This document shows, in pieces, positions 15,382 through 54,855 of a DNA stretch of 64,000 nucleotides. The notes under the pieces were generated by a model. It saw only the letters and a program-made list of their open reading frames with translations, was not told the DNA's origin and did not search any database. A program made the translations under genes and the position numbers. The DNA is from a virus. Where the stretch lies: the IMG/VR virus record IMGVR_UViG_3300045988_175607, positions 47,956 to 111,955 of that record; one strand, written 5' to 3'. Each line of letters opens with the position of its first letter. Within the stretch, counting starts at the first letter, position 1.

Positions 15382-17382
15382 TTAAAACGTACCCCAAACC
15401 AGATCAAATGTTACGGTAGCAACACCTTCAGCAGCAGTTGTAGTCTTAATAGAAATATTCTGATTACCAGTTGCCGCAACATAATTGACTTGAGCAGTCT
15501 TTGCGTTAGTGGCATCTTTAGTTTTTACAGAATGAACTACGCCTTGGCCATTTTCAGAAGCTGCAACAGTGAAAGTATCAATATCATTATGAGTATCTTT
15601 CAGAGTGTATTCCTTAGCGGTTACGCTAGTAACATGACCATTCTTATCATAAGCTACTTCATGAGCAGTAACAACAACGGCCTCATCAGTCTTCTGACTT
15701 ACCTTGGAAGCAGTAGGTGCGGCAACAGCAGCGCCAGGAGCAGCATGGCTGACCTTTATGTTCTGATATTTGCCATCAGCTTCAGTATTATTAACGGCAA
15801 CAGCAATATTGTCACCAGCTTCTAAGGTAAGCTGACCAACAACATTAGCAGCCATACCATCAGGAGCAAGCTTAATACCAACTTTGCCTTCATCTTCTAC
15901 ACGAGAGAAGCTATAAGTAGTATTTTCTTCATCGCCAGAAGGTACAACATACCATTTTAATCCGCTAGTAATAACGCCACCGACTTCATCGCCAGTAGCA
16001 ACGATTAAGTCGCCAGTCTTTACATTGGCGGCCGCGGCACTGCCTTCAACACTACCCGCAGGAATGGTGAAGTCACCAGTGGCTTTATAAGTCCAGCCAA
16101 TTTCTTGAGCGCCAGTAGGAACAGCAGTAGCGACTCCCTTGAATACCATGGCGTCCATGCTCTGCTTAGCAGCAGTAATCTTATCGTCGATAACCTTTGT
16201 AGAAATAGTGGCTACACCATTTACAAAGGAAACAGACTCGCCGCCTTCAAGCTTAACTTTAGGATCAAATGTATTGGTTACACCAACATCACTGGAAGTA
16301 TCTTTAACAGTTACCTTAAAACCAGTGGCCTGACTATCTACAGCAACGCTATCAAGCTTTGTATCAGCAGCAGAAACGGTGATGGCAGTACCATCTTGAG
16401 CCACTGTTACATTGTCACCACCAGCAATACTAAGTTCAGAGCTAGCACTATTAGCAAGGTCAGACTTTAAAGTAATCTTAGCAGTATTTTCAGTAGCTGC
16501 GGTTTCACCATTTAAAGAGAAATGGCTACCCTTAATCTTAACAGTTTTAGCAGCAGTATCAGTGCTAATGTTAATATCATTACCATCAGCAGCAATCTTA
16601 AAGCTATCCTTTACAGGATCAGTCTGAAGGCTATCTTTAACCGCGCTTTCAATAGTAGCAGTTTGACCCTCTTGAGAAACTGTAAAAGTAGTGGACTCAA
16701 CAGAACCAACTTCAGTAGTAGCATTAACAGTAATATCACCATTAGTACCACGCACTAAACTAATTGCATTACCAGCTTTTAAATTAACAGAACCAATCTT
16801 ACCCTTACGAGTGGTATCTGCAGCGTTATCACGATTTAAATCAATCGCTACACCACCAGTAATAGCACTAGAACCGATTGAATAAGTATCACCAGTTAAT
16901 TTAATACCATCAGTGCCATTAGCGGTCAGAACAAGATCTGCACCAACAAACTTCAGAGCAGCAGACTTATTATTAGTAGCATCAAGATCTTTACCATCAC
17001 GAACAAAAGCAAGGGTTGTAGTTGCAGTAGCCGCATTATCAGCAACAGCAACAGCAGTACTTACAGAAGAAACCTGAGTATCAGTATCAGGATTAATCTG
17101 CACCCATTGCTGACCATTATAAACACAAAGAATGTTTTCAGCAGTAGCATAATAGAAATGACCAATCTCATTAGAGAGATCGGCGCCCGAAGGCAGATTG
17201 GCTATAGCCGCAACAGTTGTTACGCCTTCATTAAGAGCAACCAGCTCAGTTGCAGATTTACCAAAATATAAACGATTAGTATCATTAGTTAAATAGAAAG
17301 AGCCCTCTTTAATACCAGTTTTACCGGCCATTAAGGTATTTAAACCACTTTGAGAACCCCTCAAAAATCCAACATTAGCCAT
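15382..17382 (-). CDS. Tail fibre protein (666 aa), TAG-free, Ala/Thr/Val/Gly-rich
   Basis: Complete standard ORF; SD AAAGGAGAT + ATG 17382; TAA 15382. N-terminus FLRGSQSGLNTLMAGKTGIKEGSFYLTNDTNRLYFG matches the conserved phage tail-fibre/HylP-type N-terminal motif (RG...GE.g.etDT..lkiGdG); visibly higher GC than its neighbours. Confidence 0.7.
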   Translation of the reverse strand: MANVGFLRGSQSGLNTLMAGKTGIKEGSFYLTNDTNRLYFGKSATELVALNEGVTTVAAIANLPSGADLSNEIGHFYYATAENILCVYNGQQWVQINPDTDTQVSSVSTAVAVADNAATATTTLAFVRDGKDLDATNNKSAALKFVGADLVLTANGTDGIKLTGDTYSIGSSAITGGVAIDLNRDNAADTTRKGKIGSVNLKAGNAISLVRGTNGDITVNATTEVGSVESTTFTVSQEGQTATIESAVKDSLQTDPVKDSFKIAADGNDINISTDTAAKTVKIKGSHFSLNGETAATENTAKITLKSDLANSASSELSIAGGDNVTVAQDGTAITVSAADTKLDSVAVDSQATGFKVTVKDTSSDVGVTNTFDPKVKLEGGESVSFVNGVATISTKVIDDKITAAKQSMDAMVFKGVATAVPTGAQEIGWTYKATGDFTIPAGSVEGSAAAANVKTGDLIVATGDEVGGVITSGLKWYVVPSGDEENTTYSFSRVEDEGKVGIKLAPDGMAANVVGQLTLEAGDNIAVAVNNTEADGKYQNIKVSHAAPGAAVAAPTASKVSQKTDEAVVVTAHEVAYDKNGHVTSVTAKEYTLKDTHNDIDTFTVAASENGQGVVHSVKTKDATNAKTAQVNYVAATGNQNISIKTTTAAEGVATVTFDLVWGTF

Positions 17383-17408
17383 TGATTAAATATCTCCTTT
17401 TAGTTAGA

Positions 17409-18137
17409 TTATTCACCAGCAGGAATATCAGCCCACTGTAAAGCAGTTTCTATAGTAGTAATACGAGTTTCGTGATCTTCTACAGAAACTTTTAAATTAG
17501 ATACTACAGTTTTTAAGCCAGGAACAGTAACTTGCTCTTCGCCTTCACCAGTAGTAGTGTCATTAATAATGTCTTCAAGAGCTTTTACGCGAGTGTCTAA
17601 TTCTAACGTAGGATGCTCTTGAATTTTATCGACCGTATCTTGTAAATTGCCGACAGTAGTATTCATGGTGGTTAAGCGCTCTTCAAGAGCATCTAACATA
17701 CCATCAATTTCACCAACATCAACAGTTACCCATGTACCATCGCCACGCAAGAACTTAGTCTGATCGCCAATCGCGGGAGCAGGAACATAACCAGCTTTAC
17801 CAGCCGCATCAGGCTTAGCACCAACCATTGTTTCGATTTTAACAAGGTCAGATATAGGTTTATTTATCCATTTTTCGCTTGTTGAATCATAAACCAGAAC
17901 ATCATTAGTGCCAAGGGTTTCAGAAAGATTAATATTACCTAATTCACCAAGAGAAATTTCGCTGGGGACTACTCCACCAGAGCTGGTAGAACCAGTAATT
18001 TCAATATCACCCAAGAACAAACGACCAGTTTGAGAATCAGCCGCCGCCGTAGTGAAATATAAGGTATCCTTATCTTTTACTGCCAACTTGACATAATTAT
18101 CGTATAGACCGCGCAAGAATTTTACATACTGAGTCAA
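17409..18137 (-). CDS. Tail fibre/neck fibre protein (242 aa), TAG-free, coiled-coil C-terminus
   Basis: SD AAAGGAGTG + TTG 18137; TAA 17409; N-terminus KFLRGLYDNYVKLAVKDKDTLYFTTAAADSQTGRLFLG shares the fibre N-terminal motif with the next gene. Confidence 0.65.
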   Translation of the reverse strand: MTQYVKFLRGLYDNYVKLAVKDKDTLYFTTAAADSQTGRLFLGDIEITGSTSSGGVVPSEISLGELGNINLSETLGTNDVLVYDSTSEKWINKPISDLVKIETMVGAKPDAAGKAGYVPAPAIGDQTKFLRGDGTWVTVDVGEIDGMLDALEERLTTMNTTVGNLQDTVDKIQEHPTLELDTRVKALEDIINDTTTGEGEEQVTVPGLKTVVSNLKVSVEDHETRITTIETALQWADIPAGE

Positions 18138-18202
18138 TGAAATTCACTCCTTTTCTTTTTAAATTCTTCACCTAATAGTCAAATTTACTGTTTATTAATT
18201 AA

Positions 18203-18233
18203 AACGACTTGGCCTTATTAAGGCCAAGTCGTT
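18203..18233 (-). terminator. Perfect 14-bp hairpin AACGACTTGGCCTTA-TT-AAGGCCAAGTCGTT
   Basis: Immediately downstream of the TAA at 18244 of the giant fibre gene and upstream of the 18137 start. Confidence 0.6.
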
Positions 18234-18243
18234 CTTATAAAAA

Positions 18244-21200
18244 TTAAGCTTTGTTTTCTAAAGCGGCAATCCTTTGTTCTAAACTATTTATTTTATTCCA
18301 CAAACGTTTAATATAATTGTTTAAAGTAGCTTCGCCAGTAGGCTCAATAATACTATCAGTAGTTTCATTGGCGTAGCCTTTAACTACACTTGAACCAATA
18401 TCAGCGCTTATACCTTTAGTATACTTATGCTTGCCAATAATATGACCAGCTTCATCATATTCTATATCATATAATACAGGTTCTTCTGTATTGGGCTTAT
18501 CACTTGTATCAACTACAGAAATCTTATGTGCAACCTATAATTGATCATTAACTGTTCGTGGTAATGTCCAATCGCTTTGATACTCTTGTATACGACTTAA
18601 CCACATTGTTTTTTCTGGGTCAGCTAAAGCATTTGCTTTAGTTTTTAATTCTGCCGCATTAGTTAACTCTAAAGTACCTTCAGCAAATGTTGCACCGAAG
18701 CCTAATAATTCATTATAATAGTGCGGTTCGCGCTTGCCGCCATCAGGAACAAACACACCTCTTAATTGAATCCACTTATTAACTGAAGTTATTTCTAAAG
18801 GTTTCTATGTTGAGGTAGTCTTAAGTAAACCGCCTGAAACCATACTGCCACGCACCGGCACTTCCTCAGCAATTGGCGAGCTATATATCGCGCTATTCTC
18901 TGGAATCGCAGTAAATATATCGCGTGGATGACTGGTCTCATAAGGATTATTATCTCCGCGTGCAGTCACACTATTTTCGAATTCAGCTATCCAAGATAAA
19001 TATAAATTATATTCAGTCTCAGTAAGATTGCCATTATTTTTCTCTTCAAGCCAAGCCGCAAGTAAAGCGTCTTTATTTTCTATTACTTTTGGATTATCAA
19101 GATTAAATATAGCACCTTGATAAGAAAGTTCAAGCATCCTACTAAAATAAGGCTAATAATTTAAATTATTAATTACTATGTCTTTAAAATGAGTAGGCAA
19201 TGGCGCAATCTTATTTTGTTTACCAACTACATGTCCAGTTTCATCAATAAGATAATCACGCAATAAAATAGTACCATTATATTTATTATCAGTATAAGCC
19301 ATGTTATAAAGGTCATAAACATTAGGACTATTTTCTAATGAAGGTTTAATATCTTCAAGTTTGTGATAATTGTGATGAATGCTTAAAATATTATTATTTT
19401 TATCATTATTAATATTAACAGTAATCCATTGTTTATTAATCATAGCTGGATCGCTATAATCATGTTTATAAATATCTTGGTCAATAATATCATCACTGTC
19501 ATTTTCAAAAGTATAAGTAGTTTCAAAAAAGGGAATATTTTCATTACACCATTCTGCAGAAGGCTCGTTTCCAGCACCAAATGCCGATGTTAAATCAATT
19601 AACATCATTCCATCTATATAAAAATCTTTAATGCTACAAGCAATAGTAAGAGAAGTTGATACAACATTCTCTTCCTATAATGCACTCGGTTCATAAATAT
19701 ATGTTTGAGACTACCAATCATCTATATCAGTTTTTTTACCCGTCATTTCTATAAGCTTAAACTAAACTATTTGAACATTATTAGAATAATTAAGACGAAA
19801 ACTTACTATGCTACCTGTTCCATATGAATTAGTATAACAAACAAAACAATATTTATGATTTAAAAAAACCTAAATATCTTTAGAAGGTGTTAAATATATA
19901 ACATTATCTTCACTATCTTTTACTCTTGTGAGTGAAGTTTCTCCAAAATATTTTTTTGAAGAATCATATTTAGCATTATTGCTGAATGTCCATGCCTTAT
20001 TTTCAAATGATGGATCGAAAATAAGATTAGTTAAAGTAACATTTTTTGTTACAACAGGCTCTTTAGTAAAATTAATGCTATTACTCTAATCAGTGCTAAT
20101 TTTAGCACTAATTATTTTACCAAACTGATCAACCGTCAACAGTGATTTAGGAGTAAGTGTATCGAATGTATTTAAAATATCATTCATCAAATTAATGCAA
20201 CCCTAAACTGTTTTATTATCACGAGATGTTTCATTATCAATCTCTAATAACGCATTTAGTTTAAGAATTAATCCATGAATAGTATTCAGTCCATCAGCAA
20301 ATCCAACCAATTCACTAAATTCATAACCCATCTATTGGCCTATTAATGATAAACCATCAACAACTACTTTATAATCAGTATCCCATTTTTGTCCAATAGT
20401 GTAGTCATAATCATATTCTTTAGAACCATCAATTGCTTCAATATAATAATTGACATCATCAATAAATTCATAATAATACTTTTCTTTAGTGTCTGCGCGG
20501 TTTTCACCAACTAAAAGCCCCTTAACCGCAACAATACTAGTCCAAGCTTGACCTAAAGGATAATTAGTTTTTAAAGCTGTCTATTCATCAGCATTTAAAT
20601 CAGTTAAATCATAACCAACAATCTGATAATTAATACCTTCCTCTAATACATATTCATCTCTATCAAGCGCGGCAATGGGGGAAGTTGCAAGAGTTAAACC
20701 TTCAATATAAGTTTTATTGGCAGTATCCCAGATTTGACCAACCTGATATTGCTTTTTAAAGTTTTCAAATTCCTCTGTGGGCATACCAGCACTATTTTCA
20801 ACTTGAGTAATTTGATAAATAATACCATCGCGGAATACCCATTCGCGCTCGTAAATTGAACCAATTAATGTAAGTTCAGTTTGGCCCTCTTCATAATAAC
20901 CCAAAACAATACCATCAATAAATTCTCGACCATAAGGCCAAACTTCATGATTTTCATAAATTGAACCATACTTTTCTTGAAGCTCTTGAATTTTTTCTTC
21001 AGTAAGGCTTGTGCCACTACCAATTTCTTTAGCTATATAATAATCAACACCATCTTGCATATTATAATATAACTTCTAATCGGTTGCAGCAACATATTGA
21101 GATAATGTGACACCAGGAACTACTTTATCTCCTTCAGTCCAGATGTCTCCAATAACGTATTTTTCTAAAAGCTCATCAATATCTTCTAAAGCAGAAATTT

Positions 21201-23157
21201 GATATTGAGTCCCAACAGCCATATCATAACGAGACACTTGAACAACTTCAGCGACGCTAGATGCCAACTAAATACCCTACCGCACTTTTGTATCACTAAT
21301 AGACCAAGCAGTACCAACATTTAACCCACTTGTGCCAGCATCAACAATATAATATTTTTTATCAGGCTTAAAAATGTAAGATAAACTAGTCTAATCACTA
21401 ATTGTTACATCAATAATATCAGGCGCAAGAACAATACCATCTATTACATCAGTTAATTCAGTATTCCACTTTTGTCCTACTTTAAAATGCTGATTAATAT
21501 AAGTGGCCTAATCTTTGTCAAATTGCGCATTTGAACCATCTTCTAAATAAGCAATATAATAATTACGTCCAGGTTTAAATACATATTTACCATCTACAGA
21601 AGCAACTGTTGTAAGTAAACCTTCTTTATATCTTTTAACTAAGTCAGTATTACGAATACGATAATATTTTTGATTCTGATAATAAATTTTATCTAAATCA
21701 ATATTATTAAAATCTTGTAAATCAATATGATTATCGTCATTAGTAACAATAATCATACCCATTAAATCATGTACTGAATTAATACAACCCGCAAGAGTGT
21801 TAATTTTATCAGTATCATAGCTATATCCATTACCTTCTGGATTAATACTTACAAGACGTAAACCATTTTTATTATCCCAATCAACATTAAGATTACGATT
21901 CAAAGAACCATTCTATTCTTCTGAACCATAAACTAAATCCCAAACATGAGCTAAAGTATTACCTAAAGAAGGCAACATAACGCTAATTTCTTGAGTATCT
22001 TCACTCACAGCTAAACGATTAGTACCATCATGTTGGTTATATAAATGACCACTATATCCAGTAGGCTCAATAGAAATTTTATCTGTTATATTTTCATCAG
22101 CATAAGAAATATGTTCAGGGTCAAAGCCCGCTTTATTGTAATAAATCGCGGCGGGAATCTTACTTTCTGCGGTTTGCCACTATTTGGTTTCCGCATTAAA
22201 ATACTGCTTTTGGCTTGTATTATTTTCAGTATCCATCTTAATTTGAGACCAAGAAGTTTCTTCATCAGAAGGATAATCTTTTACATCATTAGTCAAAATA
22301 GTAGAATTAGTAAATAATTCACTTTTATTACCATTCTCATCAAGTACTGGGCCAGTAAATTGTTCAGCACCTTTAATCCTTAATCCCCATGAAGGCTACC
22401 AATGTAATTGATAAAATTTATTGGTGCTGTCAGTATCAAAGTGCGGCGCCATAGGTACAATACTTGGTGCATCCGCGGAAATACCAAGTGCAGGCATCGT
22501 GGAATTAAGTTCCGCAATCATTATATATTGTTCTTTATTATCTTTATAAACCTTTTGCCAAACGGTAGAATCCCAACCGCGCCCTTTACCATAAATAGAA
22601 GTATCTAAAGCATAATTACGCACATAAGCAGAATTTGCACTGGTTAAAATAGTAAACACAGATTGACCATTTACCAATTTAGCTTGATAATAAAGAGTCG
22701 TAGAACCGTTTAATGTTCCAATATCAATAGGTTCGTGCGAATCAGTTGATGTATTATAATTAAAACGCTCAGTAATTTTACCATTTTTATCAGTAACAGT
22801 TGCTGGAACGCGCACTACATCGCCTTGCCGCACTTGACAATAATTTAAACTTACTGTTGAACTGGGTACAACCTCTAATTCATATGCCGCAGGAAACTCG
22901 ACTGCGCCATCAAGCACTTCTTGAATACTTGCGCCCTCTTTTTGTTTAAAACTTGCATATAGCTTACCATCGGGTGCTAAATAACAAGATTTAAAACTAT
23001 CATCGCTACCTTCAGAATCATATTCCACTAAAACCAAACGATTTACATAAATACCATCAGTCTTAATATTATGATCCATTTCATAGCGGCTAGAATAAAT
23101 TTTATCAAAATTGAACTGGGCGCGGTCTAAATTTACCACTTTTCCATAAAAACTCAT
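18244..23157 (-). CDS. Giant tail fibre / receptor-binding protein (about 1637 codons) with internal CBM-like module
   Basis: Track ORFs 22396, 21508, 21076, 20581, 19153, 18805 and 18535 all have mod 3 = 1 and are joined by TAG; ATG 23157 is preceded by TAA; TAA 18244; internal ...FDPSFENKAWTF... and IDLTSAFGAGNEPSAEWCNENIPFFE. Two junction stretches were not translated by hand. Confidence 0.45.
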
Positions 23158-23529
23158 TTAAACCGTTTCCTCCTCATCATCTTGATTATAAACTATATCA
23201 ACAATTAAATAAGCACTATCATTGGAAGATATAGAAGTTATAGAAGAAGCATCAAATGAAATTGCAGTAATTTCACTCAATCCCTCTAAATCTAATTCAT
23301 AAATTCCAGTAGCACCAATAATAATTGGATTATCCGCATTATTTAAATAAAACTTAGTCCCTGGAACCGTCTAAATGCCCAATTGTGTTATGGGCAAATA
23401 GGCGGAAAAAATACTACCAGAGGTAAGTTTAGCTTTAGTAATTGCGCCAGATATTCCGCTAGTTCGATTTGGCTAATTCTCTAAAGAACTATCATTATAA
23501 TAGCGGAATTGCATTACTTTTCTTGCCAT
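23158..23529 (-). CDS. Hypothetical small protein (about 123 codons, 2 in-frame TAG)
   Basis: SD AAGGAGGATAAGGAGA + ATG 23529; hand translation runs to TAA at 23158-23160. Confidence 0.45.
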
Positions 23530-23547
23530 TCTCCTTATCCTCCTTAA

Positions 23548-26500
23548 TTAATAAATTCGATCAACTACTTTAGTTGCTTTTATATTCATTAATCCATTAT
23601 GAGTTAATGGTATTGTTAAGGTTTGAATATTATACAAACCATTAATTTTACTTGTTTCATCGTATATTGAAATCTAAGTGTTAGGTTCTAATGTATATAT
23701 AGGTATTGCATTTACAGTTACAGACTCAACACAATAGGAATAATTATATACCATATTGTCTATAACTGAATGCGCATCTTTTCCTTGTGCGCTAATACTA
23801 AACATATTTTCATATTCAGCATTTAAATATATATAACTATAACCATCTCTTATTTCTCCTTGCGCTTTTAACTCATCATACTAATTTTTATTAGTTAAAA
23901 AAATCACCGTAGGAGTTTCTCTATAATAGATGGCCGTTACCTTATCATCATTAATTGCTTTAGGCCTATCTCCAACTATATTAATAGAATACTTCTCTAA
24001 ATCATCACCGTCTAAGAAATCTAACCAATAATTTAAAACTTCAGGAGCATTAACCACATTTTTATTCCAATAATATAATGATTTATCAACGCCGTCAATA
24101 GGCTTATAATATTGGCAAGTTTTAGTATAATATGAACGATTTTTCTTAGGCTCATAAATTACAATATCTTCAATTCCATCTTGAACAAACACATTTTTTA
24201 AAGCTTGCTACGCCGCATAATCTTCTACGGTTTCAATTACTTTATAAACACTATATTCAGTCGGCACAATTTCATATCCTGATAAAGTTGCAGTAGATTC
24301 TTTAAGATAATATCCCTTAGTAATTTTACAGAAAATGATATCTTCTCTGCCCCATACCTCATCATCTTTTGGATTAGTATGGTTTACTTCTGGATAACGA
24401 TAATAGGGAGATATCACTTTATCTTTTCTGAAAGAATATAAGCCATTTGCACCTTTACTCATAACCGCAAGATATTCCTTAAGAACAGCATCGTATTCAT
24501 AAATATCAGTATATTCAGAAAAAGTTTGATGATATCCATCAATATAATGGTCAGTTTTCTCATAATAGATTTTCTTAGAATCATATATACTATCTTCAGT
24601 CAATTTTAAAAACTTATCATCTATATTTACATCTTGATAAATGTAACAATTATGAGTTTTCTTTGCATTGACTAAACTATTATCACTAGTAACTAAAGCG
24701 ATATTGGGATTATCATTTTCTGGTATAAAAAAGCCATAAGTATTTTGAAAATGCACTTCTTGCCCATTTATATATTCTGTATATTCGGTATTATAAGAAC
24801 CATTTAGCGCATAATAATATAAAGGTTCAAGCTCCTCTTCTTCTTCTGCATCTGCAAAAATATAAATATTTTCGTCAAATGGAATATTTTGATTACACCA
24901 ATCTAAATTAGGCTCTTGTCCCGCGCCATATTTACGAGTTAAATCTATCATAACAAAAGGTGCAACTAAGCCATTAGCACCGTCAGTATTTTCAGATAAA
25001 GTGGTGATTATAAATTTAAGCGCATCATAATCTTTTAAAGTAAAAATATTCGCATATCGGAACTAATTTTCTGATTCTTTAAATTGCGGGAACCATCCTT
25101 TGCTATGATCTGAAATAACATTTGCATATAAACCCTATAAAATTCTAAATATTGTAGCAGAAGCATAGGAATGTACTGCAATATAATATTTATGAGCTGA
25201 AGAAATTTTTGCTTGTTTATTTATTTTATGAAAAGTATATTCACTCTCAAAATAAGGAATATTTGCATCACACCATTCTCTTGTAGGCTCTTTACCCTCA
25301 CCAAAAGCTTCAGTTAAATCAATTAATATTATATCATCTATACAAATAATACTTGATGTATTTACACCTATTCCAAAATTAAATTTAGAAATATGGCTTG
25401 TAGATCCAGTAATTAACTTTGAATGTCGATACCATTTTTTTTCCAAATGCCTTCCATACCAAGTATTATTAATATTATAATTAATATTTGCCGCTCCATA
25501 GTTATAATATATACCATTTATAAGTTGAGTTATTTTTACACTTGACGCAAAATTTGGACTGTGACAAGCGATATAAAAAATATGATTTTCAATATTTGGT
25601 GTAATTATAACGTTGTTTGATGGTGGAAAGAAAAAATCCTCATAAGTTTGCTCTTTTTTAGTTGTTAATGAAACATTTCCACTCAAACTTAAATCTGTAT
25701 TATATATAATGCTAGAATCTTCTAAAATAAAGCTCTTGTTTTCAAAAGAGGGGTCAGGAGCTAAATTAGTTAAAATTATATCATTAACTTCTTCTTCCTT
25801 CTCATCAATATTTATATAATCTAAATTAGTAAAATACATATTAGTACGCTATACGTAAACATTATCATATTGCAGGCATAATGCAAACATATTGCTATTA
25901 GTAATTTCAACTAATTTATTCGGCTCATCAGGATATAAATATTTTATTTTTTCAATATAGCCCAATTTATTGCCTTCAGACCAATCGCTATCATAATTAT
26001 CATCAAAAAATCCAAAAGCTTCAGAAACCTCAATACTAAAGGGCCGACACCAATAAGTCTAAACAAAATTATTCCAGATTTCTTTTGCAGATTTTCTAAA
26101 TGTATTATATATTTCTAACTAATGAGAACGTTGTTCTAAATTAAATACAGCTTCTTGCATAGATAATATTTTTTTCTTAACCTTATTATCTAACTCAGTC
26201 TATACTTCATAAGTTGAATATTTTTCATCTGCGCAATTAATTCGACGAGATTCATATCCCACTTCAGGCTCTAATGAAGTTGCTCTATCAATAATTTCAG
26301 GAGTTATTTTTACCGCATTTGGCCACATTGGTTTATAAGGCAGCAAATGAACAAAACCAGTAGATTGACAATAATGTTTTTTGTCTTTATAACAATTACC
26401 AACCTATTGATAATCGCGCACATAAGAAAAATATAATTCAGAAAAATTACCATCTTCTGTTTTTATATAATACTTAGTACCAAAATCAACTGGATGAGTC

Positions 26501-31682: not shown

Positions 31683-31697
31683 ATCACCTTTTCCTCC

Positions 31698-42200: not shown

Positions 42201-45200
42201 ATGACTGCTTATTGATTTTTATTAAGCCAGTATTACTATCTATAACAAAATCATCGCTATTTAATTTATAAGTTTCTATTAACTCTCTAGCTTCATTATT
42301 AGCAGATTTCAAAGCGTCATTAAAAGCTTCTGTTCCTACTGTTAATTTATTTAAAGATTTAACCGCAGTGTCATATTTATTAATAGTTTCTAATAAATTT
42401 TCATATGACTATTTAGCTTCATTAGCAGCTTCAGCCATTTTTTCAGTATTTTCTTGCGCTGCTTTTAAACGATTTTCAACTTTATTTGCCTCAGCCTTTT
42501 TTACAAGAACCGTAATTAACGCTACAAGTCCTATAATTGCTACAGAAATAGCTAATAATGGCAACCAGCCAGCCTAAGCAATAAGACCCCCGGCCGCAAC
42601 TTTTTTTCCAGCTTCTAACCCTGCCGCTCCCACAACTTTTTCTGCCCCAGCCTAGCCAATTGCAGATACTGTAGCTAATTCATGAGCAGTTTTCTAAGCA
42701 TCAATCAATTTAACAATACTGCTCATTCCAGTCATTAACTAAGGAATAACAAAACCTACCTAAGTTAATACTGCCGTAAATTTTTCCCAACCTGTTGTAT
42801 CAGGATTATTAAGAACATCAATTAGCCCTTGAACGGAAGAAATTACAGTTCCTAATGACATAAGTGCTGTAGTTACCTAGGAAATTGATGCAGCCCAATC
42901 GCTTAATTGTTGTACTGCGTCCTATTTTAACCCCTGTGTCATTTCATCAGCTAATTTATCTTGATAATTTTTAGTGGCATCTAATTCTTGCTTCTATCGA
43001 CCTCGCGCATTTAACATATCTATAACTTCTTGAGGAATATTATATAAATCTTGTCTATCGCTAATAACACCGTTTAATATTTGAGATATCGCATCGTCTC
43101 CACCAAGTTCAAAAAATTCTCCTGGAGCATAACCCTAAGAATTTTGAACTTTTAAAATTATCTCAAATAAATCTTTATATTCTTTTTCTCCTAATTCAGC
43201 TTTACTAGTTAACTCTTTAACTTTATCAATATATTCTTGTAATTTTTGTTTTTCTTCATCAGTAAGTGCATCTTTATCGATTAAAGGATTTTCAGCGTTA
43301 AATGCTTCTGCCTACAACTTTTCAAGCATTAAAGCTAATTCTTTGGCTTTCGCTATGGCAGTATCTGGAACTATATCTTTAAATGATAATTTTTTTTCAG
43401 CCATTCTTTGTAATAAGGCATCAATATTAGTACTTGCAGGTATATCTTCTCCGGTCTCGCCTATATTTTTATAAATCTCACCAAAAATACTTACAACTTC
43501 ATCTTGATATTGAGTGGCTCTTTTCCATTTTCCCTAAAACTCCGCTTGAGCGTATACTTTTTCTACATCTTGTTCAGCTTCTTCTTGAGTTAAAGGTTCA
43601 TCATAAATATCAAGTACACGAGTAAGTTCTTCCTATTGCTTTTTTAGCTCTTTAAGACGTTCTTTGGTTTTATCTATTTCTTTTTGATAATATACAAAAA
43701 AATCTTTTACTTTTGTTGCATCTTCATCAGAATTAATCCCAGCCAATTTTTCATTTAATTGTTTTTCTGCTTCAGAGCGAGCAACTAAAGCAGCATCTTT
43801 TTTTTCGCCTTTTAAACCTCTTAAAGAGGTATTTGCTCTTATTTTTTTTAACTAATCATTTTGATAAGCCTTTTTAGCACGATCCAAAGCCGAGCCTTGT
43901 ATATTATCTATTTCTGCTGCTACTTCAACTTTTCTTATTTTTGAATTTTCAATATTTTCATCTCTTGTTGCTTTTGAATGTACGACACTGCGCTCTTTTT
44001 CATATTGCAATAACTTTTCACTATCTTTTAATTGTTTAGCTAATTCCTAACTATGCTTTTGTAAAGTATCTAAACCATCAAGCTAAATCTAAAAGCGTTT
44101 TTTTGTAACATCATTTAAACTATTCTCATATTTAAGGAAAGTCTCTTGCAAAGAAGTGCGTTGTAATAAATTGGCTCCCTAAGTAGACATTGAAATGTCG
44201 GAACTACCAGACATAGTACGATAAACACTTTGTGCATCTTGGATTGCCTATCTTTTACTCTGTTCAAATGCTTTTTGGCCCGCAGGAGTCAATTGTTTTA
44301 TTGAAATTGCAGCATTGCGTAAACCTTGTGCCATTTCCTACTAGAACACCTTGGTAACAATAGTTCCAATAGTAAACAATACACCTTTTAAGCCGCCCAA
44401 ACCATTAATTAAATCAGCTACAAACTCAAGAACATTTTTTAAACCATCAGTCATGGTAATAAAAGCGTCATCTTTTAATAACTAACTATAAATCTCTTCG
44501 GCGGCAGCTTGTACTCTCTTAGAAGCACCAAGCCAGCTCTCTTCAAAAATCTTAGCCTGATTATCTAATTCACCAGTTGAGCTTTTTGCAACACCAACTA
44601 ATTCCTAAAAATAATCCCAATTACTCATTAAAGTAATTAATTGATTATATTGACGCACACCAGCAACAGTTTGCGCCAAAGCCATTTGCTGATCTCGACG
44701 TAAAGTAGTCCATTTATCACCCAGCTCATTCAAAATAGTATCCATATCTTTCAATTCGCCGGAAGTATCTTTAATATTTATACCAACTTTACTTAAAGCT
44801 TCAGAATATTTATTTAAATTAGTGCCATCATCTTGGGTTTCTCCAAGAGTCAAGCCTTGAATACGAGAGAATAATGTACGTAATGCAGTACCAGCTACAT
44901 CGGCACTTTCACGAGTTGTGGCTGTAATAGTTGCTAAAGCACTTGACGCATATTCATAACTTAATCCAATAGTCTGAGCAACAGATGAGAACTTCTCTAA
45001 ACCTTGTGTGATTTCGTCAGTACTAGAAGCTGTATACGCACCCAATTTAACCAAAACGTCCGCAAAATATTCAAGATTATCAGAGCCTTGTGCAAAGTTA
45101 TTCCATACGGCAGTCATCTGGTCTGCGACAGTTTCAGCACTAACACCCGCAACATTCGCCATTTTTATTGTGGCATCTGTACGCTTTTTAACTTCTTCAT

Positions 45201-45867
45201 CACTCAAACCCTATTGATAGTAAATCAATGAAGCGTTTGTATAATTAGTGGTTGTAGTACTCAAAGCTTTTGCAGCTCTATTAGCTTCAACCGCAAAATC
45301 CTTCATCTATTCAGCACTATATCCAGTAACAATACGAATATCATTCAAAGATCTATTTAAATTTTGAGCATAATAATAAGCCTTTTGCACACCGCCCATT
45401 AAACCATGTACAATACTGGATGATAATTGCCATCTCGCAGTATTTGATAACGACACACCAAGTTCTTTTATTTTACTATTTACGCGAAAAATTGGCGCTT
45501 CAGCGTTAACAATAGCTCTTGTCATACCATTGAAAGCTTCCATGCCCTTCGGACCTAAAAGCGCCAATTCATTACCATAATCTTTTAAGGTTTTTCCACT
45601 TTGTTTAAGTGAAGCATTGAATCTATTTAAATCCAACTTGCCAGTCTTAGGATTCATCGCAGATTCTAACTAAGCTTGTAATTCAGCGGCAGAAGCACGA
45701 GCCTTCATTAAGGCATTATCCAGATCTGAGAGTCCGCTGCCATTATTCCAATTTAAATTTTTGCCAACGGCTAAACTATTTAAAGCTTGCTATAATGATT
45801 GTATTTCCTTCTTTGCCGCATTAGCATCTGCGGTAAAAGATAAGGTTACATTTAACTGTTTTGGCAT
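36280..45867 (-). CDS. Tail tape measure protein (about 3195 codons, dozens of in-frame TAG)
   Basis: Ten track ORFs from 45307 down to 36280 all have mod 3 = 1; every fragment end checked (45307, 44605, 42079, 40540, 38746) is TAG; long coiled-coil E/K/Q/L-rich text; C-terminal YGYATGGYTGNWGTSDGKVALLHEKELVLNK is typical of TMP ends; SD AAAGGAGC + ATG 45867; TAA 36280. Confidence 0.7.
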
Positions 45868-45901: not shown

Positions 45902-45938
45902 AAAAGCCTTATGGTATATTAAATACCATAAGGCTTTT
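45902..45938 (-). terminator. Perfect 16-bp hairpin between the chaperone gene and the TMP start
   Basis: AAAAGCCTTATGGTAT-ATTAA-ATACCATAAGGCTTTT, followed on the minus strand by T-rich sequence and then the TMP SD. Confidence 0.55.
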
Positions 45939-45978: not shown

Positions 45979-46512
45979 TTACTTTAGACCAAGTAAAGGT
46001 GCTATCTGCTTCAAAAGCTCTAGATTGTTAGGATCAGCGAGCTTCTTTTGAATTTCATTAGCATCAAGATTTAATTGGCTATAGTCTTGAGAGATTGTAT
46101 CCATAATACCAGCCGTAGAATTTTGATAGGTATAAATTGAATCAACCATCTTACTAATTTCCGCAAGAAGTATAGAATATTCATTAGTTGGTAAATAATC
46201 CATAAGCTTACTCATAAAACCAGAACCAATAAGCAAATCATAAATCTTTGAAGGATTTTCTAATTGTTTTTCTGTAAAAGTTATATTAGTATAGTTACGG
46301 ACTATTTCAAGTGCAAGATATACTTCTATTTTTACTGCATTAGAAAATTCCTTTTGCGCATCATGGGAATTATTAATTACAGTAGCAATAAGATCAAGCT
46401 TATCGGCTATTGGAAGATATTGCTTTACTTCAATAGTCTCATTATTATAATCAAAAGTTTTTATATCTTGATTTTTATTTAAACCAAGTTTTGTAAAAGA
46501 TACTTTTGCCAT
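45979..46512 (-). CDS. Tail assembly chaperone-like protein (177 aa), TAG-free
   Basis: SD AAAAGGAGA + ATG 46512; TAA 45979; lies directly upstream of the TMP gene. Confidence 0.5.
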   Translation of the reverse strand: MAKVSFTKLGLNKNQDIKTFDYNNETIEVKQYLPIADKLDLIATVINNSHDAQKEFSNAVKIEVYLALEIVRNYTNITFTEKQLENPSKIYDLLIGSGFMSKLMDYLPTNEYSILLAEISKMVDSIYTYQNSTAGIMDTISQDYSQLNLDANEIQKKLADPNNLELLKQIAPLLGLK

Positions 46513-46543: not shown

Positions 46544-46574
46544 TATTATAACATAAAAAAAATGAATTGTAAAA
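46544..46574 (-). promoter_or_regulatory. Sigma70-like promoter (TTTACA-17 bp-TTATAAT) upstream of the chaperone gene
   Basis: On the minus strand: -35 TTTACA (plus 46569-46574), 17-bp spacer, -10 TTATAAT (plus 46544-46550). Confidence 0.45.
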
Positions 46575-47769: not shown

Positions 47770-47797
47770 AATGGGGGAAGATTTCTCTTCCCCCATT
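47770..47797 (-). terminator. Rho-independent terminator after the major tail gene (AATGGGGGAAGA/TCTTCCCCCATT)
   Basis: Perfect 12-bp stem, 4-nt loop; A-run on plus gives the minus T-tract. Confidence 0.65.
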
Positions 47798-47965
47798 TTT
47801 ATTCTTGAGAATCAAGCTCAAAATCTAATTCTTCAAAAACCTTCTTAGGTTTTTTCTTTGTTATTTTTATCGGCTTTTCTTCTTCAATATTAATCTTTTC
47901 TACTTCTGGTTCTACCACCTTAGTAGCATTTCCCACACTTGCTTTTTTACGCGAGTGTATAATCA

Positions 47966-48964
47966 TTAGTCTATGAAATATTCCTCATGAGCCTTGATAT
48001 GATCAGTCTTAAGACGCTCGATATCAGAAGCACCCGCAGTTTCAATAATCTGAATTGCGGCGAGGACTTTCTTAGTCTTGTCGAAACGAGTATAATCAGG
48101 GAATGCATCCATGGTAAAGGTGAAAGTAGAAGGATCGCCAGAAGACGCCATTGTGAAAGTAAAGTTAGACTGAATCTTGCAGTTAGGAATAATAAATTCC
48201 GCAGGCATATCTACACCATTGCGATCACGGAACAGAGTAGAAGCTTCAAGATAGTAGTTACCGCCAAACTTATCGGCAGTAATTTCAATCTGCTGCGCGC
48301 CACTTTCCTTGGCTACATAATAGTCTACCAGCACAACGCAACCAGCCTTGAAAGGAGTGAGGTCATCACGCTCAGCACCCTCAGCAGTACGAGTAATGGG
48401 CAGAGTAATCTTATAACCAGAATAGGTTATACCTTCGACTTCTTCAGTAACTTTCACATAAGTATTATCAGCTTCCTTATTGCTGTAACCTTCGGGCTTA
48501 GCAGGAATATAAGGCTCAGTGGCAACTTCATCGCCATCCATAAGCATAACATAAACCATATCCTCATTATTATCAGCAAAATAGGGCTTTTCTTTCAGAT
48601 AAATAGTAACCTTATCGGCATCTACTATAACCTGGTCAGTTTGTTCAGTTGTATGAACATAAATAGGAGCGCCCTTACCAGCTTCAATAAGACCAGCACC
48701 AGAAAGAATCATGAATCCCGCAGGGGAAATCAGAGCATCCTCCATGGTGAAGGTTACTGTGCGCTCACCTTCCCAAGCTACAAGACGTGTATTACCACGT
48801 CCGCCTTGCGCGTAAACTGTGGTTGCAGCGCCTTCCATGCTGGAGGTCTTCAATGTATCAAAATAAATAACAGGTTCATTTTTATAGAATATTTTATTAC
48901 CCACTTTTTGAGGTGCTTTCGCCTTTAACACGACGTCACAAATCTCGCGGACACCAAACTTCAT
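47966..48964 (-). CDS. Major tail (tube) protein (332 aa), TAG-free
   Basis: SD TTAAGGAGG + ATG 48964 (MKFGVREICDVVLKA...); TAA 47966; strong terminator follows; sits upstream of the chaperone/TMP block. Confidence 0.55.
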   Translation of the reverse strand: MKFGVREICDVVLKAKAPQKVGNKIFYKNEPVIYFDTLKTSSMEGAATTVYAQGGRGNTRLVAWEGERTVTFTMEDALISPAGFMILSGAGLIEAGKGAPIYVHTTEQTDQVIVDADKVTIYLKEKPYFADNNEDMVYVMLMDGDEVATEPYIPAKPEGYSNKEADNTYVKVTEEVEGITYSGYKITLPITRTAEGAERDDLTPFKAGCVVLVDYYVAKESGAQQIEITADKFGGNYYLEASTLFRDRNGVDMPAEFIIPNCKIQSNFTFTMASSGDPSTFTFTMDAFPDYTRFDKTKKVLAAIQIIETAGASDIERLKTDHIKAHEEYFID

Positions 48965-52285: not shown

Positions 52286-52882
52286 TTACTTTACTACTTT
52301 ATAAACTGGAGTAGTGGGAGTTTCTTCGTTACTCTTCTTGTAATCAACAGTAGTACGACGTCCAGTAGGTGCAGTATGAGCAGTTTCAGTATTTTCCTTC
52401 TTTTCAGTTTTTGTAAATACTTCATCAGGCTCCTTAGACTCTTTATCATGCTGGATAGCAGCAGTAACATTAAAACCAGTCTTTTTCTGCAAAGCCTCTA
52501 TCTTACGAGTATCAGTTAAAGGCAAAGACACAGAATATTTCTTAATTAAATCCATAGCACCAACGGGAGCATAATCAAGAGCATCAAGCCACTGATCAAG
52601 TGGGCCAGTTTTAATCAAATCTATAATATTCTTTTCTGACATCCAATATTCAGGAGTTGCATAAATATTTAAGCTATTGATTGCTTCATCGCTATCAATT
52701 TGCAAAAAATTTGCCATCAATTCACGACCGCCAGGCTGATAAGTAAGTTTTTCTAACTCTGCATAAGAAATTCTCTTGTTTTCACCAGGCGCGAACTCTC
52801 TACGGATATTTTCTTCTGGAATTTTATAAACTACTACACTAGCACTACGATTTTTTACATTAAAATTTTTATTACCAACCAT
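52286..52882 (-). CDS. Hypothetical head protein (198 aa), TAG-free
   Basis: SD AAAGGAGAT + ATG 52882; TAA 52286. Confidence 0.5.
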   Translation of the reverse strand: MVGNKNFNVKNRSASVVVYKIPEENIRREFAPGENKRISYAELEKLTYQPGGRELMANFLQIDSDEAINSLNIYATPEYWMSEKNIIDLIKTGPLDQWLDALDYAPVGAMDLIKKYSVSLPLTDTRKIEALQKKTGFNVTAAIQHDKESKEPDEVFTKTEKKENTETAHTAPTGRRTTVDYKKSNEETPTTPVYKVVK

Positions 52883-52906: not shown

Positions 52907-52950
52907 CAAAAAATGGGAGAAAAGGGATACAAAGTACCCTTTTTTCTCCC
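52907..52950 (-). terminator. Terminator hairpin after the major capsid gene
   Basis: GGGAGAAAAGGGATAC / GTACCCTTTTTTCTCCC imperfect 16-bp stem with a flanking A/T run. Confidence 0.5.
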
Positions 52951-52963
52951 CTTATATTAAAAA

Positions 52964-54073
52964 TTACGGATTGTCGTTACCAATAACAACATTAGACTGC
53001 CAAGCAACATTGGAAGCACCATCAAGATGCCATGTATCCATTTGACCCAGAAGAGCAGTGTCAACATAAGCACAAATATTATTGGCCATCATGCACACTA
53101 CGCCAACCTTCTTATAGACCTGAACTTCGCGAGAGCGATCATAGTTATTATATTCATCAACGATAGTATTACCTTCAAAAGCAACCTTTACAGGCTTGCC
53201 ATCAGCGCCAGTAGGAATAATCCAAGCATAACCAGGATCAATAACCTTCTTTTCATTAGTGCCATCTTCAAAGCCCTGTTCAAGAATAACAACCTTCTTA
53301 CCCTTATAGCTAGCCAGACGGCCGGTACGCCAAAGTTCATCCTTCATAGACTCAGTATAACGCCAAGCTTCCTGAGGAATCATATTGACAGCAAATTCAT
53401 AAGTACAATAAATAGTAGGTTCGCCATAAGCAGAAGCAATGGTTAAAAGGCGATCAAAGGAAGCCTCATCAAAACCTGCGGCCGCAACGCGATTTGCAGG
53501 AGGAAGCTGATTGATAGAAGCCTTCAAGGCAGCACCAATCTCCTTATAAATGAGTTCATCCATACCTTCCATAATAATAGCGGTAACTTCAGCGAAATCA
53601 ACACGGCCATCAAGAAACTCTTCAAAGCCAATCTGAGCAGCGCCACCAATCGCGCTAGTGCGCACTTCAAAAGCCTCTTCAGCTACGCCAAGCTTAAAGA
53701 CCTCATACATACCAGCAAGGCCAACGCGAGTTACAAACTGCTTAGCACGCTGACGAGTGTTAAGCTTCCTACGGAAAATGGGTTTATCGCCCTGCTTAAA
53801 AGTCTTAACTTCAGCGAACTGATTATACTGCTCTTCTACCTTCTTGGGGAGAACATCATCAAGAGTCTCTTCAATAATGGAGAAAATCAGATTTTTATTT
53901 TCACGATAAAGAGAATAAGAACCCGCAAGTTCATTCATCTCCATACGAAGTGTTTCATTAAGTGTATCATAGTCTAAATTCTTGCCATCCCAGCTATAAG
54001 CAACAGGAGAAGCAGGCTTAGCCTTAGCTACAGTCTTCATTAATGCAACAAGATTATTACGATCTAAAGCCAT
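52964..54073 (-). CDS. Major capsid protein (369 aa), TAG-free
   Basis: Complete ORF; SD GAAAGGAGA + ATG 54073; TAA 52964; higher-GC, well-biased codons; position within the portal-scaffold-capsid order; a terminator follows. Confidence 0.6.
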   Translation of the reverse strand: MALDRNNLVALMKTVAKAKPASPVAYSWDGKNLDYDTLNETLRMEMNELAGSYSLYRENKNLIFSIIEETLDDVLPKKVEEQYNQFAEVKTFKQGDKPIFRRKLNTRQRAKQFVTRVGLAGMYEVFKLGVAEEAFEVRTSAIGGAAQIGFEEFLDGRVDFAEVTAIIMEGMDELIYKEIGAALKASINQLPPANRVAAAGFDEASFDRLLTIASAYGEPTIYCTYEFAVNMIPQEAWRYTESMKDELWRTGRLASYKGKKVVILEQGFEDGTNEKKVIDPGYAWIIPTGADGKPVKVAFEGNTIVDEYNNYDRSREVQVYKKVGVVCMMANNICAYVDTALLGQMDTWHLDGASNVAWQSNVVIGNDNP

Positions 54074-54090
54074 TATATTTTTCTCCTTTC

Positions 54091-54855
54091 TTACGCTATG
54101 CGCATTAATTTAACGCCTTTTTGACCATCAGGCATAGTATACAGACGCACTACCTGCCACTTCATAGAGCCATCACCAGACTTGCTGAGAATACCGTCAG
54201 CCGCACGGGGAGAAAGCTCATCACCAAGAGCAAGAGTAGATTCCGCAATCATGTTAGTGGTAAAGATATCACCCACATTAGTCTTAAATACGCGGGGAAC
54301 CATCTTAGTGCCTTCGGGCATCTTGCGCTCATAATGCTTACCAAGAATGTGGAAGGGATCTTCATTATAATGAATTTCATAATAATCAGGGCCGGCAGTT
54401 ACATCGTCATAATTGTAAGTCTTGCCACCAAGTTCAATGCTAGAATCGCCATTATTATCTACGCCATTGTAATAACGAGTCTGTTTATCCTCTTCGGGCT
54501 TTTCCCAATCATAAGGACTATAAACACGAGCTTCATAATTATCTTTCAGCATAGCGAACTCAGCATCAACCTGATGTTCACGATAAAGCTTAATCTCATT
54601 ATAAACAAGCATCCATTCGCCCTTACCAGCGAAATTTACCTCACCACCATTGGCGGCAGCATAGTCATATTTTACAAACTGACCATTTTCTAAAATCTTA
54701 ATATCTTTATTAGCAGGCAGCTGACCATAAATCTGTCCAGTCCTCTGAGCTGAAAGATGGTTAGGTTCTACTTGGCCATAACCATAATCAACATAGCCGC
54801 CATTAGCGGAATCTGCCTGGCTAGTAATGTGTTTCTTTAAAAACTCACCCAGCAT
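54091..54855 (-). CDS. Capsid-associated protein (254 aa; decoration or auxiliary capsid protein), TAG-free
   Basis: Complete ORF between the scaffold-like gene and the MCP; TAA 54091. Confidence 0.4.
   Translation of the reverse strand: MLGEFLKKHITSQADSANGGYVDYGYGQVEPNHLSAQRTGQIYGQLPANKDIKILENGQFVKYDYAAANGGEVNFAGKGEWMLVYNEIKLYREHQVDAEFAMLKDNYEARVYSPYDWEKPEEDKQTRYYNGVDNNGDSSIELGGKTYNYDDVTAGPDYYEIHYNEDPFHILGKHYERKMPEGTKMVPRVFKTNVGDIFTTNMIAESTLALGDELSPRAADGILSKSGDGSMKWQVVRLYTMPDGQKGVKLMRIA

Follow-up and report, generated by a model that had tools for sequence, protein, structure and literature searches.

The IMG/VR virus record IMGVR_UViG_3300045988_175607 contains a stretch of 64 kb (positions 47,956 to 111,955 of the record, hereafter the window) that probably represents, by its sequence, the late, virion-encoding module of a large siphovirus and that forms part of a genome of probably about 160 kb. 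The codon TAG is scattered as a sense codon through most genes of this module but is absent from a small set of genes that includes those of the major capsid protein and the major tail (tube) protein, and it is this absence and its likely cause that are considered here. All genes lie on the minus strand, GC skew is negative across the whole window, and long open reading frames (ORFs) are almost confined to that strand and emerge only if TAG counts as sense. Minus-strand ORFs of at least 150 codons cover 29.6 kb with TAG as a stop and 61.3 kb with TAG as sense, the real stops are TAA or TGA, and ribosome-binding sites of the AGGAGG type precede most genes. The genes for the portal, the large terminase (TerL) and the tape measure protein (TMP) become full length with TAG as sense and match PHROG families with E-values of 3e-84 to 2e-60. 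In alignments with homologues glutamine (Gln) is the commonest residue opposite TAG in seven of the eight families tested, and at conserved Gln columns TAG, CAA and CAG interchange among relatives. By these features the phage is recoded according to genetic code 15, in which TAG specifies Gln, and the window holds 226 in-frame TAG codons against 607 CAA or CAG codons.

Protein similarity places the phage in the apparent lineage of phAss-1, Enterococcus EF1 and Lactococcus 949 and points to a host of the Firmicutes type. Relatives in IMG/VR reside on contigs of up to 200 kb, the closest being 162 kb long, and megablast returned no match at the nucleotide level among deposited phage genomes. The genes recognised in the window include none for lysis. 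A 192-kb contig that carries the label of a Methanobrevibacter metagenome-assembled genome (MAG) in NCBI encodes a tail tube homologue (P0234, 73% identical); given the bacterial sigma-70 promoter in the window and the Firmicutes phage relatives, this label is probably a binning artefact and not a clue to the host.

The gene coordinates proposed in a previous reading of the window from its letters alone (the sequence-only reading) were all reproduced in an independent gene table (Table 1). The capsid gene lies downstream of the portal and scaffold genes. Its product is 98% identical to a protein named 'major capsid protein' in nr, finds annotated Bacillus phage capsid genes by tblastn (26% identity, E 2e-9) and gives a sub-threshold match to the HK97-fold major capsid protein in NCBIfam (E 2.3e-4); the exact sequence is on record on 42 contigs. 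The tail tube gene is situated upstream of the chaperone-position gene and the TMP gene. Its product matches phrog_2729, a 'virion structural protein' family (E 3e-54), and its homologues are annotated as 'tail tube protein' in Bacillus phage Nate and, in Lactococcus phages of the 949 group, as 'virion structural protein'. Homologues of both candidates occur in phAss-1, in ~140-kb Enterococcus phages and in siphoviruses of Bacillus and of the Lactococcus 949 group. The AlphaFold2 models of these proteins were built on shallow alignments (at least 67-80% identity) and are unfit to test folds: the mean confidence score (pLDDT) is 44.6 for the capsid protein, too poor for a fold test, and 54.1 for the tail protein, where only a middle β domain is confident. 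A Foldseek comparison with the PDB yielded no significant match, the best one (E 0.09) being to tail tube proteins, sequence and profile searches of the PDB gave no usable match for the capsid, tail or fibre proteins, and Pfam and NCBIfam held essentially nothing for the TAG-free proteins except the sub-threshold capsid match. The two genes next to the capsid gene, one of them for a putative capsid-associated protein, belong to families with syntenic homologues annotated as 'hypothetical' in phAss-1 and Enterococcus phages, those of the capsid-associated protein lying beside the capsid gene. The larger of two fibre-like proteins has a full homologue only in the closest relative (87% identity, 0 TAG) and received no family or PDB assignment in profile and PDB searches; the smaller gives a weak PHROG match to a fibritin neck whisker (E 0.004), and its homologue in the closest relative contains one TAG.

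The seven genes that the sequence-only reading had listed as TAG-free, 177-666 codons long, indeed contain 0 TAG among 69 Gln codons. Each is only marginal when taken singly, with a chance of zero TAG of 0.003-0.2 per gene, but the TAG share of Gln codons is heterogeneous across the genes of the window (G = 80.9, permutation p = 1.5e-4). All 11 TAG-free genes, including four small ORFs, together hold 74 Gln codons compared with 16.4 expected, a value that none of 20,000 permutations reached (p < 5e-5). Gene sets defined by function alone were also tested in order to avoid a post-hoc choice of genes, and TAG is depleted in the capsid and tail tube genes (Fisher p = 0.003) as well as in these two together with the two capsid neighbours (Fisher p = 1.8e-5). 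The other 31 genes are homogeneous, with 29.6% TAG among their Gln codons (G = 35, p = 0.38), and in most genes CAA makes up about 62%, TAG about 30% and CAG about 9%. TAG is depleted relative to CAA as well, at 0:27 in the TAG-free genes and 226:472 elsewhere (Fisher 5.6e-5). The difference in TAG per Gln codon between the major structural genes and the rest is thus significant, and the equality that the sequence-only reading had named as the opposite outcome was not found. Its statement that the TMP, giant fibre, portal, TerL and HNH genes carry TAG every few dozen codons holds approximately, at one per 40 to 100 codons. TAG accounts for 27% of Gln codons in the TMP gene (one per 60 codons), and the giant tail proteins have one TAG per 85-100 codons in a block that is broken only by the TAG-free fibre pair. 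Within genes the positions of TAG are even and show no 5' enrichment (Kolmogorov-Smirnov (KS) p 0.22).

The claim that TAG-free genes are GC-richer applies to five of the seven (GC 0.41-0.425) and fails for the other two (0.29 and 0.35). Comparing TAG-free with other genes, GC is 0.53 vs 0.43 at the first, 0.39 vs 0.33 at the second and 0.285 vs 0.203 at the third codon position, so that most of the excess sits at positions one and two and reflects an amino-acid composition rich in Ala, Gly, Val and Thr rather than a codon signal. The base that follows the codon is C in 17-20% of cases for TAG, 22% for CAG and 8% for CAA (window and 18 related lineages). Selection for a weak termination context after TAG was considered as a cause and rejected because CAG shows the same enrichment in C (TAG vs CAG p 0.28), an enrichment that is instead consistent with a C-to-T origin of TAG from CAG.

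The genes that lack TAG are also distinguished by their other codons. Codon usage differs from that of the remaining genes at p < 0.01 for 13 of 18 amino acids, with AAG accounting for 64% of Lys codons in TAG-free genes and 20% in others, CAG for 61% and 9% of Gln codons, CGT for 66% and 33% of Arg codons, CTT for 43% and 20% of Leu codons, GGT for 62% and 46% of Gly codons and GCT for 62% and 42% of Ala codons. The optimal set of the TAG-free genes comprises AAG, CAG, CGT, GGT, GCT, CTT, ACT and TTC, and AGA, CGA, GGA, GGG, ATA and TTA are avoided. In a principal-component analysis of relative codon frequencies from which Gln codons were left out, the first axis captures 33% of the variance, ranks the seven TAG-free genes and the scaffold ORF as its top eight, and correlates negatively with the TAG fraction (Spearman -0.62, p 7.5e-5). 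Shine-Dalgarno pairing is stronger in TAG-free genes as well, at -9.5 kcal/mol vs -5.9 kcal/mol in the others (Mann-Whitney p 0.016). Several TAG-free genes are followed by terminator hairpins, and two hairpins bracket the fibre pair as a separate unit; as hairpins of this kind are also found behind some TAG-rich genes, that of the TMP among them, the terminators are supportive rather than specific. Protein identity, codon bias, ribosome-binding sites and terminators together suggest that the TAG-free genes are highly expressed and their products present in high copy number. The capsid protein, tail tube and nested scaffold (see below) fit the genes expected to be most expressed, whereas the two capsid neighbours and the fibre pair have no assigned function and are presumed abundant. 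A near-consensus promoter upstream of the chaperone-position gene and a terminator behind it suggest, as sequence motifs, that this transcript is boosted separately while read-through supplies the TMP.

Table 1. Features of the window and of related loci discussed in the text (codon counts are TAG, CAA, CAG unless stated otherwise; TAG share is the percentage of Gln codons in 35 recoded loci; dG as calculated for hairpins)
Feature	Coordinates	Strand	Gln codons	TAG share	Remarks
Giant tail-module ORFs (2515, 1637, 1611, 1099, 1361 aa)	7731..36156	-	11-28 TAG each		
Strong terminator	15284..15320	-			Directly after fibre gene, dG -22.8
Fibre-like protein, Ala/Thr/Gly/Val-rich	15382..17382	-	0, 8, 10		Codon-optimised
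Second fibre-like protein, coiled-coil C-terminus	17409..18137	-	0, 4, 3		Codon-optimised; TTG start
Terminator-like hairpin	18203..18233	-			Just upstream of fibre pair, dG -24.7
Tape measure protein (TMP)	36280..45867	-	53 TAG		3195 aa; PHROG 'tail length tape measure protein', E 2e-60
Terminator hairpin	45902..45938	-			Between chaperone-position gene and TMP, dG -22.1
Chaperone-position gene	45979..46512	-	0, 8, 1	19% (19-21%)	Directly upstream of TMP; only PHROGs of unknown function match
Near-consensus promoter	46545-46573	-			TTTACA, 17 nt, TATAAT, TG; directly upstream of chaperone-position gene
Strong intrinsic terminator	47770..47797	-			After major tail gene and a 55-aa ORF, dG -21.2
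Major tail (tube) protein gene	47966..48964	-	0, 3, 5	7%	Second-highest codon adaptation
Protein just downstream of capsid gene	52286..52882	-	0, 1, 4	8% (8-9%)	Moderately optimised
Terminator hairpin and T-run	52915..52950	-			Directly after capsid gene, dG -19.2
Major capsid protein gene	52964..54073	-	0, 1, 11	2%	Top codon-adaptation score in window
Putative capsid-associated protein	54091..54855	-	0, 2, 8	3% (2-3%)	Between scaffold and capsid genes; strongly codon-optimised
Putative nested scaffold gene	54877..55731	-	TAG-free		TTG start 55731-55729 (codon 228)
Full-length scaffold-like ORF	54877..56415	-	4 TAG of 22	20%	phrog_3313
Portal	56428..57990	-	10 TAG of 27		phrog_2739, E 3e-84; 1 TAG per 52 codons
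Large terminase (TerL)	58522..60252	-	12 TAG of 31		Terminase PHROG matches; 1 TAG per 48 codons
Terminase-small-subunit-position gene, second part	60252-60704	-			phrog_3314, profile 192-277
HNH endonuclease ORF	60851-61687	-	7 TAG		Identified by PHROG profile; 1 TAG per 40 codons
Flanks of HNH ORF	60705-60850 and 61688-61833				146 nt each, non-coding
Terminase-small-subunit-position gene, first part	61834-62598	-			phrog_3314, profile 9-189
Sigma-factor-like gene	62602-63555	-	1 TAG of 17		phrog_5767, E 1e-43
Perfect sigma-70 promoter	63735-63763	-			TTGACA, 17 nt, TATAAT, extended TG; upstream of sigma-factor-like gene
Terminator hairpin before sigma-70 promoter	63835-63854	-			
All other families				24-55%	
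tRNA genes of relatives	L059 1242-2377; L081 5718-5793; L082 4117-4192				Near sigma-like gene

A scan with the capsid protein yielded 52 loci, which ORF restoration divided into 35 that are TAG-recoded and 17 that are not, and dereplication at <90% portal nucleotide identity left 19 recoded lineages. The four core families, namely the capsid protein, its two neighbours and the tail tube, are TAG-depleted in 19 of 19 dereplicated lineages (Fisher p 5e-8 to 6e-3 each). The word 'excluded' used in the sequence-only reading is too strong as an absolute, since TAG still makes up 2-8% of Gln codons in these families among relatives, and the depletion is about tenfold; at least one TAG occurs in the capsid gene of 8 of the 35 recoded loci, and one lineage has four. 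The same contrast is seen at conserved Gln columns, where TAG takes 62 of 210 Gln codons in the portal and 46 of 92 in TerL but 4 of 130 in the capsid protein, 5 of 145 in the capsid-associated family and 4 of 57 in the tail tube. Overall these columns contain 30-66% TAG in the portal, TerL and two connector or tail families and 3-7% in the abundant-protein families. Every conserved Gln column that bears TAG is polymorphic among lineages, and the capsid Gln codons vary between CAA and CAG, which argues that too little time for TAG to accumulate is not the cause.

Across 16 families and the 19 lineages the fraction of optimal codons, computed from non-Gln codons, correlates negatively with the TAG fraction (rho -0.84, p 4e-5). 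The correlation survives removal of the four top families (rho -0.63, p 0.03), so that the relation is graded and not carried by the extremes. Across lineages the log-odds shift favours CAG by 3.85 over TAG and by 2.14 over CAA, which makes TAG the worst of the three Gln codons and shows that the effect is not simply one of AT versus GC. Standard-code relatives prefer CAG and AAG in the same families, with shifts of 1.86 for CAG over CAA and 0.90 for AAG over AAA; the codon optimisation is hence independent of recoding and not its by-product. Such relatives (L016, L031-L037, L039-L041, L043, L045 and L048-L050) interleave with recoded ones at a capsid identity of up to 82%, and the genetic code thus changes over short distances in this clade. 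In L031-L033 and L043 ORF coverage rises when TGA is read as sense. The more distant phAss-1, whose genome is complete and whose capsid protein has 51% identity, follows the same pattern: its capsid gene has 0 TAG, 0 CAA and 15 CAG, its tail gene 0 TAG, 2 CAA and 12 CAG, and its TMP gene 110 TAG among 249 Gln codons. phAss-1 encodes three suppressor tRNAs with anticodon CUA along with tRNAs that fully cover the codon pairs CAG/CAA and AAG/AAA, and since both codons of each pair can be read the phage tRNA set does not discriminate between them.

The scaffold ORF provides a comparison within a single reading frame. Its four TAGs stand at codons 106, 129, 175 and 208 (window 56097-55791), all upstream of the part 54877-55779 that the sequence-only reading had correctly described as TAG-free. 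Optimal codons become more frequent from about codon 210 onwards, their fraction going from 0.4-0.5 up to 0.65-0.75. An internal TTG at 55731 is preceded by GAAGGAGGAG with a Shine-Dalgarno pairing of -12.1 kcal/mol, and such a site together with a start codon (GTG, ATG or TTG) is found at the aligned position in 21 of 21 relatives, whether recoded or not, with pairing energies of -8.9 to -12.7 kcal/mol. Over the window and 18 recoded lineages TAG accounts for 41 of 143 Gln codons before the internal start (29%) and for 12 of 135 after it (9%; Fisher p 2.8e-5). It therefore appears from the sequence that a nested scaffold is translated from the internal start and in larger amounts than the full-length product. 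Both parts would be carried on one mRNA, so that the difference in TAG does not stem from transcription timing but tracks ribosome traffic. The arrangement is like that of the lambda C/Nu3 genes, where a strong ribosome-binding site and an in-frame start within a longer head-morphogenesis ORF give rise to a C-terminal scaffold that is expected in excess of the full-length protein. The present case differs in that it is deduced from the genes and that the N-terminal part matches only PHROGs of unknown function, with no protease assigned.

These observations are best explained, and quite probably so, by translational selection on synonymous codons with TAG as the least fit codon for Gln. It is proposed that the Gln codons of most genes lie near a mutation-drift equilibrium under AT pressure; a single C/T transition turns CAG into TAG or TAG into CAG. 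The capsid protein with its two neighbours, the tail tube, the internally started scaffold and the separately transcribed fibre-like pair would be translated far more than the rest, and the chaperone-position gene highly but to a lesser degree, and strong synonymous selection would maintain the optimal codon set in these genes. Decoding of TAG would depend on a phage suppressor tRNA and would plausibly have to compete with release factor 1 (RF1) of the host, so that a scarce suppressor tRNA or RF1 competition may form the molecular cost. Each TAG would then cost time and some truncated product, and as this cost would scale with the number of ribosomes that cross the codon, TAG would be purged only at the highest levels of expression. 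Selection for translation efficiency had been put forward in the sequence-only reading, and it finds support in the codon axis, the strength of ribosome-binding sites, the conservation of the depletion in 19 lineages and phAss-1, the stronger depletion of TAG than of CAA and the switch inside one ORF. One consequence can be put into numbers. With 53 TAGs the full-length yield of the TMP would be 0.4% at 90% read-through per TAG, 6.6% at 95% and 59% at 99%, and that of the portal 60% at 95%. Since a TMP with 53 TAGs must be made, read-through per TAG is probably high and the cost per codon small, which fits a depletion that is visible only in the top-expressed genes. The proposal predicts additional ribosome pausing or termination at UAG, and that TAGs added to the capsid gene would lower burst size.

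Several points weigh against this explanation. No suppressor tRNA, other tRNA or release-factor gene was found in the 64-kb window, nor was a suppressor tRNA or release-factor gene found in the 10 kb that lie beyond its right end in the closest relative. The optimal codons were defined internally and not from a host tRNA pool, and the 19 lineages are mutually related, so that their counts are not fully independent. The identities of the capsid and tail tube proteins are probable ones that derive from annotation transfer, gene order and the sub-threshold HK97 match. The chaperone-position gene is TAG-free in the window, but its family is intermediate in relatives at 19-21% TAG. The fibre pair is the least secure part of the abundant-protein reading: true distal tail fibres are expected to be low-copy proteins, and only three fibre loci were found in relatives, one of them with a full-length homologue, which amounts to essentially one independent lineage. 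A distant homologue of the N-terminal part of the fibre has 0 TAG in 18 Gln codons and yet is not codon-optimised, which codon optimisation does not predict. Finally, a tail tube family in crAss-like phages is reported to prefer TAG, and the rule may not cover every recoded clade (Borges; bioRxiv 10.1101/2021.08.26.457843).

The sequence-only reading had also offered the idea that TAG acts as a timing or dosage gate which delays or throttles low-copy late proteins, from which the TAG-free genes would be exempted for early or bulk synthesis. The published model of Borges and co-workers, in which recoding times the expression of late and lysis genes, lends this some plausibility, as do the terminators and promoter-like sites that partition TAG-free units and the fact that full-length yield falls exponentially with the number of TAGs, in a direction that matches a low-copy TMP. 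A gate is nonetheless unlikely, because the TAG share is homogeneous over the 31 other genes, long or short and of high or low likely copy number, and the number of TAGs simply follows the Gln count, while within genes TAG is not concentrated early in the ORF. The exemption is leaky, as the capsid TAGs of relatives attest, and the same families have the same codon bias in standard-code relatives. The portal gene with its 10 TAGs, the scaffold ORF, the capsid-associated gene and the capsid gene are contiguous without a terminator in between and would share their transcription timing, TAG-free virion genes are interleaved with TAG-rich ones and appear to form no earlier temporal class, and the switch in TAG lies inside one ORF at an internal translation start. 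A related idea, to which we give equally little credence, is that TAG density serves as an adaptive stoichiometry device, a tunable translational attenuator across the virion module. If this were so and suppression were incomplete, shared late transcripts would yield capsid, tube and scaffold subunits, all TAG-free, by the hundreds for every few TAG-laden giants.

A mosaic origin, by which the TAG-free genes would have been acquired recently from standard-code phages and kept a foreign codon usage, is more doubtful still. Donors do exist, with standard-code and recoded relatives interleaved at a similar capsid identity of about 82%, and the fibre genes in particular evolve fast, are almost without relatives and are bracketed by terminators like a cassette. 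Against this, depletion affects the same four core families in every one of the 19 recoded lineages, where gene order is conserved, and the turnover of CAA and CAG in the capsid gene between lineages leaves time enough for CAG to become TAG. The GC3 of the fibre gene, at 0.24, is close to the genome mean of 0.21, its codon bias favours optimal codons that end in T and not the GC-rich usage of a foreign source, and in the scaffold the boundary falls inside a gene. That GC-richer or Gln-poor genes simply hold fewer TAGs, by composition or chance, can be dismissed as highly improbable, for although single genes are marginal and five of seven are GC-richer, the joint permutation, the depletion of TAG relative to the equally AT-rich CAA, the abundance of CAG, the one-step source of TAG, in exactly the TAG-free genes, the concentration of the GC excess at codon positions 1 and 2 and the replication in 19 of 19 lineages all speak against it.

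If translational selection is the cause, the use of TAG for Gln appears to be costly to a code-15 phage, at a cost that becomes visible only under the most intense translation. This would limit the view of in-frame TAGs as mainly regulatory, the pattern within the late module being one of mutation pressure against translational selection. The TAG share of Gln codons combined with codon adaptation could serve as a proxy for expression in uncultured recoded phages; here it exposed the putative nested scaffold and flags the two capsid-adjacent proteins and the fibre pair as likely abundant components of the virion. The depletion would also explain why annotation under the standard code recovers capsid and tail tube genes intact and why these fill databases while their neighbours fragment.

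Other features of the window bear less directly on TAG usage. The tail module (7731-45867, minus strand) devotes about 36 kb to six ORFs of 1099-3195 amino acids (aa), and the 3195-aa TMP implies, by its length in sequence, an unusually long tail. By our own estimate such a tail would be several hundred nm long and contain hundreds of tube subunits, comparable to the count of capsid proteins. The sigma-factor-like gene downstream of the perfect sigma-70 promoter may, as this sequence arrangement suggests, be a middle gene transcribed by the host that switches on late transcription. In a window that is almost entirely late module, its single TAG among 17 Gln codons is no more than suggestive of early genes that remain compatible with the standard code. 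In some relatives the neighbourhood of the sigma-like gene includes tRNA genes (Ile-GAU, Lys-UUU, Asn-GUU, Thr-UGU, Arg-UCU and Arg-ACG); several of these tRNAs decode the A-ending codons that dominate in weakly biased genes, and in that region such tRNA genes are absent from the window and from the closest relative. A scheme of two tRNA pools, with phage tRNAs serving A-ending and host tRNAs serving optimal codons, was rejected because phAss-1 encodes both tRNAs of each pair. The gene in the position of the terminase small subunit is split in two by the HNH endonuclease ORF and its non-coding flanks, whereas in the closest relatives L001 and L002, whose proteins are 96-98% identical, it is unsplit and 392-395 aa long. 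The interruption thus looks like a recently inserted mobile HNH element, possibly a group I intron, although the Rfam scan of the window matched no RNA family and hence no intron family.

Compared with known systems, the phage resembles the recoded gut phages in having TAG in structural genes and aligned with Gln, in gene lengths that are restored with TAG as sense, in TAA as the preferred stop, in low GC and in close standard-code relatives (Ivanova 2014; bioRxiv 10.1101/2021.08.26.457843; PMC9523058). The recoding papers describe a split between early genes in the standard code and late genes in the recoded one and tested only for families that prefer TAG (bioRxiv 10.1101/2021.08.26.457843; PMC9523058). 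Borges and co-workers report that lysis genes prefer TAG, and their text mentions neither capsid genes nor expression level (bioRxiv 10.1101/2021.08.26.457843). In contrast, the difference described here lies inside the late module and concerns the depletion of TAG. Another related system is phAss-1 of the proposed Phassvirus group, a phage of the same broad lineage with a 136-kb genome of 44.5% GC and 36 tRNA genes, which also has TAG in TerL, TMP and portal genes and possesses tRNA-CTA genes; the paper implies a capsid gene without TAG, an exception that is neither analysed nor explained there (PMC10607447). In an amber-reassigned member of the Crassvirales from Egypt the capsid gene 'shows no alternative codon usage' and adaptation to host codons was suggested, but that report concerns a single genome of an unrelated clade with a Bacteroidota host and comes without statistics, a codon axis, lineage replication, other abundant proteins or within-gene evidence (bioRxiv 10.64898/2026.08.21.746148). 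Of the 475 code-15 genomes in which Cook et al. could find a capsid gene with table 15, 407 also gave it with table 11, which would fit a general sparing of capsid genes from TAG. A parallel from cellular organisms is found in a ciliate, where reassigned stop codons are rarer in the top-expressed genes and translational inefficiency was offered as a possible reason (PMC10553269). Ciliates have a fully converted termination system, whereas the virus replicates in a host that presumably retains RF1, so that competition from termination is expected to be stronger here.

What sets the present case apart is the statistical proof, the wider set of abundant proteins, the replication in 19 lineages and in phAss-1, the finding that TAG ranks below CAA and the nested scaffold; translational selection as a kind is already known, and a capsid gene without TAG had been noted anecdotally. 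In the classical mutation-selection-drift picture one codon axis sets apart a few highly expressed genes that have stronger ribosome-binding sites and a graded bias, and phage structural genes show a stronger host-adapted codon usage. The recoded phage differs from this classical translational selection in that the codon it disfavours is a reassigned stop, which can be costly through premature termination in addition to slow decoding.

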